Shown: positions 1 through 49,100 of the stretch, one piece after another | How the letters are laid out: the number at the start of each line of letters is the position of its first letter | How positions within the stretch are numbered: position 1 is the first letter of the stretch | The notes under the pieces: generated by a model | Told to the model about the DNA's origin: nothing | What the model saw: the letters and a program-made list of their open reading frames with translations, nothing else | Databases searched by the model: none | Position numbers and translations under genes: made by a program | From: Eledone cirrhosa | Lineage: Eukaryota | Direction of reading: 5' to 3' | NCBI GenBank assembly: GCA_964016885.1 | Contig: OZ024756.1 | Span: 24,738,001 to 24,802,000, forward strand | Length of the DNA: 64,000 bases

Positions 1-3000
1 GACAATGGTAAGTAGTGTCAGGTTAGGGCAGCTAAAGACCCTGGGTTAGAGAACCAATGAGACAATGGTAAGTAGTGCCAGGTTAAGACAGCTAAAGACC
101 CTGGGTTAGAGAAGCAATGAGACAATGGTAAGTAGTGTCAGGTTAGGGCAGCTAAAGACCCTGGGTTAGAGAACCAATGAGACAATGGTAAGTAGTGCCA
201 GGTTAAGACAGCTAAAGACCCTGGGTTAGAGAAGCAATGAGACAATGGTAAGTAGTGCCAGGTTAAGACAGCTAAAGACCCTGGGTTAGAGAACCAATGA
301 GACAATGGTAAGTAGTGTCAGGTTAGGGCAGCTAAAGACCCTGGGTTAGAGAACCAATGAGACAATGGTAAGTAGTGTCAGGTTAGGGTAGCTAAAGACC
401 CTGGGTTAGAGAACCAATGAGACAATGGTAAGTAGTGTCAGGTTAGGGTAGCTAAAGACCCTGGGTTAGAGAAGCAATGAGACAATGGTAAGTAGTGCCA
501 GGTTAAGACAGCTAAAGACCCTGGGTTAGAGAAGCAATGAGACAATGGTAAGTAGTGCCAGGTTAAGACAGCTAAAGACCCTGGGTTAGAGAACCAATGA
601 GACAATGGTAAGTAGTGCCAGGTTAAGACAGCTAAAGACCCTGGGTTAGAGAAGCAATGAGACAATGGTAAGTAGTGCCAGGTTAAGACAGCTAAAGACC
701 CTGGGTTAGAGAACCAATGAGACAATGGTAAGTAGTGCCAGGTTAAGACAGCTAAAGACCCTGGGTTAGAGAAGCAATGAGACAATGGTAAGTAGTGCCA
801 GGTTGAGACAGCTAAAGACCCTGGGTTAGAGAACCAATGAGACAATGGTAAGTAGTGCCAGGTTAAGACAGCTAAAGACCCTGGGTTAGAGAAGCAATGA
901 GACAATGGTAAGTAGTGCCAGGTTGAGACAGCTAAAGACCCTGGGTTAGAGAACCAATGAGACAATGGTAAGTAGTGCCAGGTTAGGGCAGCTAAAGACC
1001 CTGGGTTAGAGAACCAATGAGACAATGGTAAGTAGTGTCAGGTTAGGGCAGCTAAAGACCCTGGGTTAGAGAACCAATGAGACAATGGTAAGTAGTGTCA
1101 GGTTAGGGCAGCTAAAGACCCTGGGTTAGAGAAGCAATGAGACAATGGTAAGTAGTGTCAGGTTAGGGCAGCTAAAGACCCTGGGTTAGAGAACCAATGA
1201 GACAATGGTAAGTAGTGCCAGGTTAAGACAGCTAAAGACCCTGGGTTAGAGAACCAATGAGACAATGGTAAGTAGTGCCAGGTTAAGACAGCTAAAGACC
1301 CTGGGTTAGAGAACCAATGAGACAATGGTAAGTAGTGCCAGGTTAAGACAGCTAAAGACCCTGGGTTAGAGAACCAATGAGACAATGGTAAGTAGTGCCA
1401 GGTTAAGACAGCTAAAGACCCTGGGTTAGAGAACCAATGAGACAATGGTAAGTAGTGTCAGGTTAGGGCAGCTAAAGACCCTGGGTTAGAGAACCAATGA
1501 GACAATGGTAAGTAGTGCCAGGTTAAGACAGCTAAAGACCCTGGGTTAGAGAAGCAATGAGACAATGGTAAGTAGTGCCAGGTTAAGACAGCTAAAGACC
1601 CTGGGTTAGAGAACCAATGAGACAATGGTAAGTAGTGCCAGGTTAAGACAGCTAAAGACCCTGGGTTAGAGAAGCAATGAGACAATGGTAAGTAGTGCCA
1701 GGTTAAGACAGCTAAAGACCCTGGGTTAGAGAACCAATGAGACAATGGTAAGTAGTGCCAGGTTAAGACAGCTAAAGACCCTGGGTTAGAGAAGCAATGA
1801 GACAATGGTAAGTAGTGCCAGGTTGAGACAGCTAAAGACCCTGGGTTAGAGAACCAATGAGACAATGGTAAGTAGTGCCAGGTTAGGGCAGCTAAAGACC
1901 CTGGGTTAGAGAACCAATGAGACAATGGTAAGTAGTGTCAGGTTAGGGCAGCTAAAGACCCTGGGTTAGAGAACCAATGAGACAATGGTAAGTAGTGTCA
2001 GGTTAGGGCAGCTAAAGACCCTGGGTTAGAGAAGCAATGAGACAATGGTAAGTAGTGTCAGGTTAGGGCAGCTAAAGACCCTGGGTTAGAGAACCAATGA
2101 GACAATGGTAAGTAGTGTCAGGTTAGGGCAGCTAAAGACCCTGGGTTAGAGAACCAATGAGACAATGGTAAGTAGTGTCAGGTTAGGGCAGCTAAAGACC
2201 CTGGGTTAGAGAACCAATGAGACAATGGTAAGTAGTGTCAGGTTAGGGTAGCTAAAGACCCTGGGTTAGAGAACCAATGAGACAATGGTAAGTAGTGTCA
2301 GGTTAGGGCAGCTAAAGACCCTGGGTTAGAGAACCAATGAGACAATGGTAAGTAGTGTCAGGTTAGGGTAGCTAAAGACCCTGGGTTAGAGAACCAATGA
2401 GACAATGGTAAGTAGTGTCAGGTTAGGGCAGCTAAAGACCCTGGGTTAGAGAACCAATGAGACAATGGTAAGTAGTGTCAGGTTAGGGCAGCTAAAGACC
2501 CTGGGTTAGAGAACCAATGAGACAATGGTAAGTAGTGTCAGGTTAGGGTAGCTAAAGACCCTGGGTTAGAGAACCAATGAGACAATGGTAAGTAGTGTCA
2601 GGTTAGGGCAGCTAAAGACCCTGGGTTAGAGAACCAATGAGACAATGGTAAGTAGTGTCAGGTTAGGGTAGCTAAAGACCCTGGGTTAGAGAACCAATGA
2701 GACAATGGTAAGTAGTGTCAGGTTAGGGTAGCTAAAGACCCTGGGTTAGAGAACCAATGAGACAATGGTAAGTAGTGCCGGATTAGGGGAGCTAAGGGCC
2801 CTGGATGAGAGAATGTTGAACAATGGTAAATAGTGCCGGGTTAAGACAGCTACGGACCCTGGGTTAGAGAACCAATGAGACAATGGTAAGTAGTGCCAGA
2901 TTAGGGTAGCTAACAACCCTGGGCTAGAGAATTTTTGGACATTGGTAAGTTGTGCTGGATTAGGGTAGTTAAAGACCCTGGGTGATAGAATGTTCAATAA

Positions 3001-3275
3001 TGATAGGTAGTGCCGGATTAGGACAGCTACGGACCTTGGGTTAGAGAACCAATGAGACGATGGTAAGTAGTGCCGGATTAGGACAGCTACGGACCCTGGG
3101 TTAAAGAACCAATGAGACAATGGTAAGTAGTGCCGGATTAGGGTAGCTAAAGACCCTGGGTTAGCTAAGGTCCCTGGGTTAAGAAACCAATGAGACAATG
3201 GTAAATGGTACCAGATTAGGACAGCTAAGGACCCTGGGTTATGGAACCAATGAGACAATGGTAAGTAGTGCCGGA
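1..3275 (+). repeat. 60-bp minisatellite, about 46 near-perfect units plus a degenerate tail; each unit contains AATG|GTAAGT
   Basis: Exact 60-bp period to about 2760, then diverged copies. Confidence 0.97.
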
Positions 3276-46100: not shown

Positions 46101-49100
46101 GGTGGTGGTGGTGGTTATATAATTAGATATGGTAGTATAACTATTGTGTTGGTGGTGGTGGTGGTGGTGGTGGCTATATAGTTAAATATGGTAGTATAAC
46201 TATTGTGTTGTTGGTGGTGGTGGTGGTTATATAGTTAAATATTGCAATATAACTATTGTGTTGTTGTTAGTGGTGGTGGTGGTGGTGGTGGTAGTGGTGG
46301 TCGCTTTATAATTAAACGTCAACGTTGTTGTTGTTATTGGAGAAGGGCGGTGTATTGACAGCATCGGTAGAGGGTCGGAGGCCATTCTTTGCAGCATAGA
46401 GTTACGTCCCTTTGTGGTCTGAGTTCAAATCTTGACGAGGTTAACTTTGCCTTTCCTTCTTACGGGGGTCGATAAAATAAAGTACCAGTCACGCACGGGG
46501 GTCGATTTAATCGACTTTACCCTCTCCCCCCAAAATTGCTGGCCTTGTGCCTATATAAGAAACCATTATTGGAGAAATATAATTCTTGTATTTATTGTTC
46601 TTGTTATATCTAGGCTGGAGACACACTGACAATTATGGGTGATGGTTTCAGTACCACCAATGATGACAATGATGTAAGGCTAGGGGACAGCAAGTGCCCA
46701 GTATTTTCAGCCACTGCCAACTCTCTCAGGTGTACCCTTGCCCACCAGAAAACAGGGTCCTACCTGATTAAAGTAAAGGTGCAGGGAAAAGGTCTCTCAA
46801 CTGGTCACAACCAGTTTAACTATGACCTCATACTTAGAAATTTCTCACCATTATCAGGTAACAACACACATTTAAACTAACTGGTGGTGGTGGTGGTGGT
46901 GGTGGTGGTGGTGTTGAGGTTGTTGTTGTTGTGGTGGTGTGGGGGATTTTGCAGTGGTGGTGATGGTGGTGGTGGTGGAGAGTTGTGGTTGTTGTGGCAG
47001 TGGTTTAACTATGACCTCATACTTAGAAATTTCTCACCATTATCAGGTAACAACACACATTTAAACTAACTGGTGGTGGTGGTGGTGGTGGTGGTGGTGG
47101 TGTTGAGGTTGTTGTTGTGGTGGTGTAGGGGATTTTGCAGTGGTGGTGATGGTGGTGGTGGTGGAGAGTTGTGGTTGTTGTGGCAGTGGTAGTGGTGGGG
47201 GGGTGCTTTTGTAGTGGTGGTGGTGGTGGTGGTGGTGGTGGTGTTGAGGTTGTTGTTGTGGTGGTGTAGGGGATTTTGCAGTGGTGGTGATGGTGGTGGT
47301 GGTGGTGGTGGAGAGTTGTGGTTGTTGTGGCAGTGGTAGTGGTGGGGGGGGGTGCTTTTGTAGTGGTGGTGGTGATGGTGGTGGTGGTGGTGGTGGTGGT
47401 GTTGAGGTTGTTGTTGTTGTGGTGGTGTGGGGGATTTTGCAGTGGTGGTGATGGTGGTGGTGGTGGTGGTGGAGAGTTGTGGTTGTTGTGGCAGTGGTAG
47501 TGGTGGGGGGGGGGGTTGTAGTGGTGGTGGTGATGGTGGTGGGTGTTGAGGTTGTGGTGATGGTGGTGTGGGGGATTTTGTAATGGTGGTGGTGGTGGTG
47601 GTGGTGGTGGAGAGTGTTGTTGTGGTGGTGGTGGTGTGGTGGTGGTGGTGGTGGTGGTGGTGGTGGTTCAGGTGGTTGTGACAGTAAATGTACATCGGTG
47701 TGTGTTTGTGTATTTGTGTGTGTATGTATGTATGTATATGTGTGTGTGTGTGTGTTTGTATGTGCGTATGTGTGTGTGTTTGTATGTGTATGTATGTATA
47801 CCGTGTGTGTATGTGTGTATGCCATTACTCTAGACCAGGGTTTCCGAAACTTTTTCAAACGTGGCACCCTTTTTGGTTCAGAAACGTTTAAAGGAACCCC
47901 AAAGTCTAATACTGTTATATAGTCGTAATATAAATATAGTCCTTTACCTTTTTTTCATGGAACCCTAGACACTCCTCTGCGTAACCCTTAGGTTCCACAG
48001 AACCCACTTTGGGAACCAATGCTTTAGACAAAGATAAATGAACTCCTCATGTTATTTCTATTTCTGTCAACAGGAAGTCAATTTGGTGGCCAAAGACTGA
48101 CAATCAATGGTATAGGGTTCAATCCCAAGGAGATGCTAGTAACAATATGTTCCCACCCATGTCTTGCTGATAAATACCATATCAATAATGTCACCACCTA
48201 TGTTTGTATTACACCCAGGAAAACAACTAGTAAGAATCACTTTATTACTGTTGTTGTTGTTGGTATGGCTGTTGTTGTTGTTGTTGTTGTTGTGGTGGTG
48301 GTGGTTGTTGTAGTAATGTTGGTAGTGGTGGCGCTGGGTGAGAGAGAGAGAGAGAAATAGGCGAATAAACAGATAGATGGTTTGACAAACTTTTATATAT
48401 ATATTATGTATGTATATGTATGTATGTGTATATGTATGTATGTATATATATATATATATATATATATATATATATATAATGTATATGTATATATATAATG
48501 TATATGTATATATATATATAATGTATATGTATATATATATATAATGTATATGTATATATATATATATAATGTATATGTATATATATATATAATGTATATG
48601 TATATATATATAATGTATATTTATATATATATATAATGTATATGTATATATATATATATAATGTATATGTATATGTATATATATATATAATGTATATGTA
48701 TATATATATATAATGTATCTGTATATATATATAATGTATATTTATATATATATAATGTATATGTATATATATATATAATGTATATGTATATATATATATA
48801 TATAATGTATATGTATATATATATATATATATACCCATTCTGGGTCTACCTACTCCGTAACTTCCATCAATTTTGATAACTCTGCACTTTTTTATACAGC
48901 TGTCATCTTTCATGCGCATCACATGACCATACCAACGTAGTCTTCTCTCAAGTAAACAACATCTGTTCCCTCTTATTCCTAATTTCTCACTTCGTTCATT
49001 TATGTTTTGCCGTTCACGTATATTATTATTACACATCCAACGGAGCATGCATGCTTCATTCGTTTCCAGCCTGCTCTGGTCCTCTGCATACAATGCCCAT

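Follow-up and report, generated by a model that had tools for sequence, protein, structure and literature searches.

Tandemly copied exon ends and splice donors at several exons of a fibrocystin-L-like gene in Eledone cirrhosa

A gene resembling fibrocystin-L (PKHD1L1) in Eledone cirrhosa carries tandem copies of exon ends, together with the 5' splice sites (donors) that follow them, at four of its 30 exons and likely at a fifth exon that lies outside the window, by which we mean the whole stretch of DNA analysed (64,000 nucleotides of contig OZ024756.1, assembly GCA_964016885.1, positions 24,738,001 to 24,802,000, forward strand). The arrays are most probably ordinary tandem duplications of an exon end and its donor that have likely persisted since the first copy preserves both the exon and its donor, where splicing would still take place. 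An earlier note, made from the letters of the same DNA, had described the pattern and offered two explanations for it: either exon–intron junctions nucleate tandem duplications through a mutational bias, or the copied donors act as U1 decoys or poison donors that tune productive splicing. Here we report the structure of the arrays, the fate of the copied donors, their frequency relative to chance, a comparison with sequencing data from a related organism, and the published systems that the arrays resemble.

Results

With exon boundaries set from the open frame and homology, an unbiased scan of all exon ends finds tandem junction copies at four of 30 donors (exons f, g, j and u), while the 30 acceptors yielded none. 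One of the two junction scans also gave a stray match at donor c and two distant matches at acceptor h, which the other did not support. In all four cases the repeat unit crosses the exon–intron boundary, as expected of a boundary-spanning minisatellite. The numbers of GT donors in the earlier note, 12 at f, 13 at g, 6 at j and 2 at u with the authentic donor included, were reproduced by the scan (Table 1). Older, decayed junction copies were sought at the other 26 donors and all 30 acceptors, and none exceeded shuffles save an array at acceptor aa that copies the pyrimidine tract only.

Table 1 Positions in the window of the host gene, the donor arrays and the contrast cases
Feature	Positions	Strand	Basis or remark
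Fibrocystin-L (PKHD1L1)-like host gene, 30 exons (a–z, aa–ad)	4048..62493	+	open frame, Pfam, homolog collinearity
60-bp array of 55 or more units; GT donor-like site in 54	1..3278	+	likely donor array of an exon left of the window
Exon f	15323..15480	+	authentic donor at 15481
f array, 20 junction copies (12 with GT), 50-bp seed including ~31 nt of exon tail	15450..16312	+	
Exon g	17224..17384	+	authentic donor at 17385
g array, 13 donors	17364..17823	+	unit comparison
Exon j	24596..24718	+	authentic donor at 24719, matches the 9-nt consensus in full
j array, 6 donors, units of 79–103 bp	24649..25177	+	
Exon u	46614..46857	+	authentic donor at 46858
Lone 189-bp duplication at u, second donor at 47047	46814..47190	+	sequence comparison
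36-bp array with ten copies of the acceptor-aa pyrimidine tract	~56062..56437	+	contrast case
48-bp array that ends 19 nt upstream of acceptor k and excludes it	26096..26649	+	contrast case

The arrays differ in how far they have been reworked. The proximal part of the f array (15481-16055) is built from an 82-bp higher-order unit in which one seed occurs twice in diverged form: a stretch of 44 nt has GT, whereas the other 38 nt have decayed and carry AT, and the AT part has been amplified seven times; the last copy of the array carries GG in place of GT. At g, proximal units of 34-35 bp keep 6 nt of the exon and distal units of 38 bp keep 21 nt, and at j the final unit retains 70 nt from the end of the exon, 53 of them identical, with five of the six donors matching the consensus in full. 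Exon u had been grouped with the expanded minisatellites in the earlier note, but it proves to have a single duplication, which comprises 44 nt of identical exon tail, the donor and 145 nt of intron. The exon tail in the best-kept copy is 31 nt at f, 21 nt at g, 70 nt at j and 44 nt at u. Given that the farthest units of g and j hold the longest exon tail, they mark the original seed and the inner units are derived. The unit listings and the distal tails of g and j also show the signature of concerted evolution, with homogenised inner units and more divergent end units.

The units of the five arrays, that at the window's start included, are mutually unrelated, as claimed earlier: none of the 10 pairs clearly exceeds shuffles (lowest 7/200), which supports independent origins of the f, g, j, u and 60-bp arrays. 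A shared seed motif or a mobile origin was rejected, given that the units are unrelated and the seeds lie outside the within-window mask of dispersed repeats.

The 60-bp array was proposed in the earlier note as a fifth case with about 50 donors. It does hold 55 donor-like sites, 54 of them GT, and is likely the fifth donor array, whose exon would lie just left of the window. In the phase required by exon a, the end of the unit would encode Glu at a position that is Glu in 10 of 11 homologs, and Met at one that is Gln in all 11 (the homologs were picked from the top matches reaching this region). An unrelated 42-bp array (3342-3640) follows immediately in the same intron.

The copied donors decay like the bases around them. 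GT is present in 12 of 20 junction copies at f, 13 of 13 at g, 6 of 6 at j, 2 of 2 at u and 54 of 55 in the 60-bp array, so the earlier statement that GT is kept in essentially every copy does not hold at f, where eight copies lack it (seven with AT, one with GG). Across four arrays we count three variant alleles in eight GT columns and 27 in 67 neighbouring columns; the numbers are small, but nothing in them hints at selection for the copied GT, which is not conserved beyond its neighbours as a decoy would require.

Reading through the authentic donors of f, g, j and u meets an in-frame stop after 6, 12, 4 and 7 codons, respectively. The earlier claim of a stop within 15 codons is thus correct for these four exons, but it is not special to them, given that 20 of the 26 other exons behave alike (Fisher P 0.56). 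Every distal GT donor of f, g, j and u, if used, would lead to a stop or frameshift, because the intron sequence is ordinary. For the same reason the arrays do not qualify as intron gain by tandem duplication at these exons, a stop or frameshift preceding every distal GT donor. The protein is collinear with its homologs at j and u and less clearly so at f and g, where the alignment is gappy.

At acceptors, arrays come close without including the splice site. The array at aa ends one base short of the G in AG and has no AG anywhere inside, and this stopping short is suggestive; the array near acceptor k likewise excludes it (Table 1). Separately, a 35-bp array at 16784-17171 ends 52 nt upstream of acceptor g, acceptor excluded.

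Of seven sequencing runs listed, none of them recorded as RNA, four (X1, X4, X5 and X6) were compared with the window over 17150-26090 only, a range that holds the g and j arrays; signals from joins and loose contig ends were drowned out by dispersed repeats. Run X1 covers introns without differences; because its reads cover introns it is DNA, and it is probably the assembly's own sample and so not independent. In X4, from a related organism (B), a contig on 17175-17408, around exon g, differs from the window at 20 of 234 positions and breaks off within the first g unit, as expected when a graph contig runs into a repeat. A further, putative X4 contig differs, among the differences listed, at 17444, 17451, 17459 and 17467, one of them at donor position +4; judged from these differences and the end distances, it would span ~17386 or earlier to 17502, at least three units. 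Three of the four X4 alleles on the g array are found in none of the 13 window units, and the listed X4 differences on this array include no GT change. The g array hence likely predates the split from organism B, with the reservation that placement of X4 on the repeat is ambiguous and a paralog possible. At j, X4 has one contig, on 25101-25397, which a single exon end would explain as well as a duplicated one, and the restriction-site-associated DNA (RAD) runs X5 and X6 have near-zero depth on both arrays. Over exon g itself the listed differences from organism B comprise seven non-synonymous and five synonymous codon changes, a pattern suggesting weak constraint or a paralog.

These data bear on whether mis-joined reads created or inflated the arrays, an artefact that the earlier note had allowed for and that we regard as extremely unlikely. 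The length and high homogeneity of the 60-bp array, array lengths that are those of the assembly, and the probable origin of X1 from the assembly's own sample would all fit such an artefact. Against it, the units show many distinct variants and higher-order structure, and for g the related organism's contigs appear to carry a diverged version of the array, with alleles absent from every window unit at three of the four listed places.

The joined frame of the 30 exons is 2132 codons long and stop-free, and both ends of the gene fall beyond the window. The domain order runs from IPT/TIG repeats to a CEMIP-type beta-helix (Pfam TIG and CEMIP_beta-hel), and the model can be aligned over its whole length with full-length proteins, starting near residue 490, at 33-40% identity. 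The useful homologs were supplied by a HMMER search, whereas a word-index protein search returned weak TIG relatives only; three homologs looked up by name are fibrocystin-L or PKHD1 like 1. On exon ac the best identity is 74%, to a snail protein, the nearest named match for that exon.

The surrounding DNA is AT-rich, animal and crowded with simple repeats, a landscape reminiscent of octopus genomes. Strand-biased TGG/TTG-rich repeats with units of 147, 40, 59-62 and 161 bp fill exon-adjacent introns at 38010-38774, 40911-43050 and 44880-47690 and give a GC skew above 0.4 across 40-48 kb. A 1.6-kb GACA-based 24/32-bp array lies at 29375-30956 and a CAT-repeat array at 31360-31801, filling most of intron m. 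Long near-perfect inverted repeats lie at 6083-6260, 19900-20095, 23520-23760, 32100-32450, 49200-49530, 54010-54370 and 63840-63945; several are flanked by TA runs, recur in the window and by eye resemble hairpin-type mobile elements. At 50030-50826 a unit of 217-245 bp that contains a palindrome is repeated in tandem about three times, with TA runs between the copies.

Discussion

The observations that carry the preferred explanation, ordinary duplication with an intact first copy, are that the seeds span an exon tail and an intron head, that inner units are shorter, homogenised or merged, and that copied GTs decay like other bases. In its favour we also count that 20 of the 24 arrays with a period of at least 25 in the gene span lie away from donors, that a sub-unit of the f array lacking GT was amplified, that early stops are generic, that the g array of organism B has changes of its own at four listed places, and that the array at aa does not reach the G of AG. 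The published cases count for it too, with use of the first donor in F7 (PMC1557585) and amphioxus repeats that reportedly leave splicing undisturbed (PMC3087553, PMC3902484). A local duplication of 40-190 bp, by slippage or break repair, would seed an array, and unequal exchange would enlarge it. The first copy leaves exon and donor intact, so the arrays would be tolerated; exon definition and a preference for the first donor would render the extra donors near-neutral, and leaky splicing to a distal donor would end in a stop or frameshift, with the transcript removed. A copied acceptor, by comparison, would place an AG upstream, that is, in a competing position, which may make acceptor arrays less tolerable. 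The excess of arrays at donors would then be a mixture of tolerance, longer survival of exon-anchored arrays and the choice of window. What we infer in this account is how splicing turns out, by which mutational route the arrays arose and why there is a local excess at donors.

Several results weigh against it. The gene span holds 24 arrays with a period of at least 25, curated from 26 clusters by removing three left of exon a and splitting one cluster into two. With arrays collapsed and seeds placed randomly within the gene, 0.8-1.1 donor-spanning arrays are expected and four are seen (P(≥4) 0.005-0.02 across three nulls; 0.020 for all 24 arrays and 0.006 for 16 complex ones). The excess persists after masking of dispersed repeats (12 arrays in unique DNA, P 0.0045, or about 0.005) and when two-copy duplications are left out (3 of 11 against 0.45 expected, P 0.007). 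The P values are post hoc and concern one gene in a window chosen for its donor-array pattern; the local excess is real but modest, and since the window was flagged for the pattern, a one-gene excess is no proof of a genome-wide bias.

The difference between donors and acceptors is similarly limited. Acceptor arrays number none against 0.9-1.2 expected, which is not significant (P 0.29-0.40), and neither is the 4:0 split between donors and acceptors (two-sided 0.125; 0.06 including the 60-mer). As amphioxus also has such repeats at acceptors, the asymmetry in tolerance is tentative. The same side of the balance holds the persistence of the g array in two organisms whose sequence around exon g differs at 20 of 234 bases, and two points from human genes (PMC1557585): 6-16 and CBS also use two pseudo-sites, and perfect-consensus pseudo-sites are able to draw splicing in F7, a class to which five of the six j donors would belong.

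The local excess, four- to five-fold under three nulls, is also the main argument for a mutational bias, in which donor-side junctions would nucleate tandem duplications above other DNA, for example through co-transcriptional lesions or at chromatin edges, and the arrays would be neutral. Five independent seeds and recurrence across amphioxus genes, where the mechanism is called unclear (PMC3087553), point the same way. However, the excess comes from a single gene picked after the fact, survival bias predicts an identical pattern, and there is no common motif or hairpin to account for it, the search for hairpins in the f-g region and in j giving no more than a single weak inverted pair, in f-g. 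What is left of the bias proposed earlier is a local donor excess that is indistinguishable from survival bias or a lucky gene, and we consider a mutational bias doubtful, if still a serious alternative. A broader version, in which the donor side is a genome-wide duplication hot spot in the lineage and long-lived arrays (g, shared between species, and j, with full-consensus donors) are copy-number-variable leaks that tune very long genes, seems to us unlikely.

A functional role as decoys or poison donors, with copy number setting the diversion to distal donors or the binding of U1 and so tuning fibrocystin-L output, we judge very unlikely. Such a role would fit the stop or frameshift that follows from each distal GT donor, the presence of the g array in a related organism and the use of two pseudo-sites in human 6-16 and CBS (PMC1557585). 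The authentic donors of the array exons also score higher on average, 8.0/9 of the consensus against 7.0/9 for the other 26 exons, a difference to which no significance test was applied. Yet GT conservation is not above background, a GT-less sub-unit was expanded, and early stops are generic; moreover, published cases mostly use the first donor, as in F7, and the amphioxus repeats are silent (PMC1557585, PMC3087553, PMC3902484). The decoy reading of the earlier note is hence left without support.

With several independent arrays in one transcript, the gene lends itself to testing, outside mammals, whether the first donor is preferred, and donor arrays call for caution when genes are annotated. 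Were an excess at donors to hold across the genome for young duplications, it would address the origin of the amphioxus repeats, called unclear in PMC3087553, and bear on intron gain. We found no report for this animal group among open-licence papers and preprints, nothing on the donor-array layout in passages of PMC10078293, and no genome-wide enrichment test of donor-spanning arrays in a literature search for which most subscription papers were outside scope.

Related layouts are known from other animals. De Grassi and Ciccarelli (2009) described internal tandem repeats leading to intron gain or exon change, and boundary repeats in human paralogs (PMC2812944). The arrays here resemble theirs as boundary tandem repeats arising by local duplication and differ in that we see neither a new intron nor a retained repeat.

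Closer in form are the donor-spanning variable number tandem repeats (VNTRs) of five human genes, F7 (intron 7, 37 bp), the interferon-inducible 6-16, CBS (intron 13), LMNB2 and PDGF (intron 4) (PMC1557585). F7 has 5-9 identical donors and splices solely from the one farthest upstream; as summarised in the same paper, the first donor alone is also used in LMNB2 and PDGF, and two further sites are used in 6-16 and CBS. As in these genes, where 5-25 identical pseudo-donors lie downstream, the first unit here spans the exon end and donor. The human cases have one array per gene and measured donor use, whereas here there are four or five arrays in one gene, described from sequence.

The closest parallel is with the amphioxus mirages, tandem repeats of similar unit size over exon-intron boundaries in Adh3, troponin C, the globins BflGb6 and BflGb9, and PGBD5 (PMC3087553, PMC3902484), in which, as here, splice signals are missing from some units and end units escape homogenisation. 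Mirages occur at both boundary types, whereas we find donors only (four or five, in one gene) in an animal of a different phylum. Normal splicing, reportedly undisturbed by the repeats, and length instability have been demonstrated in amphioxus; the present arrays are known from their sequence. Mirages recur across genes and at two exons of PGBD5, so a recurrent architecture of this kind, which the earlier note did not recall as described, has in fact been published (PMC3087553, PMC3902484), and the fibrocystin-L arrays are an unusually dense example of it.

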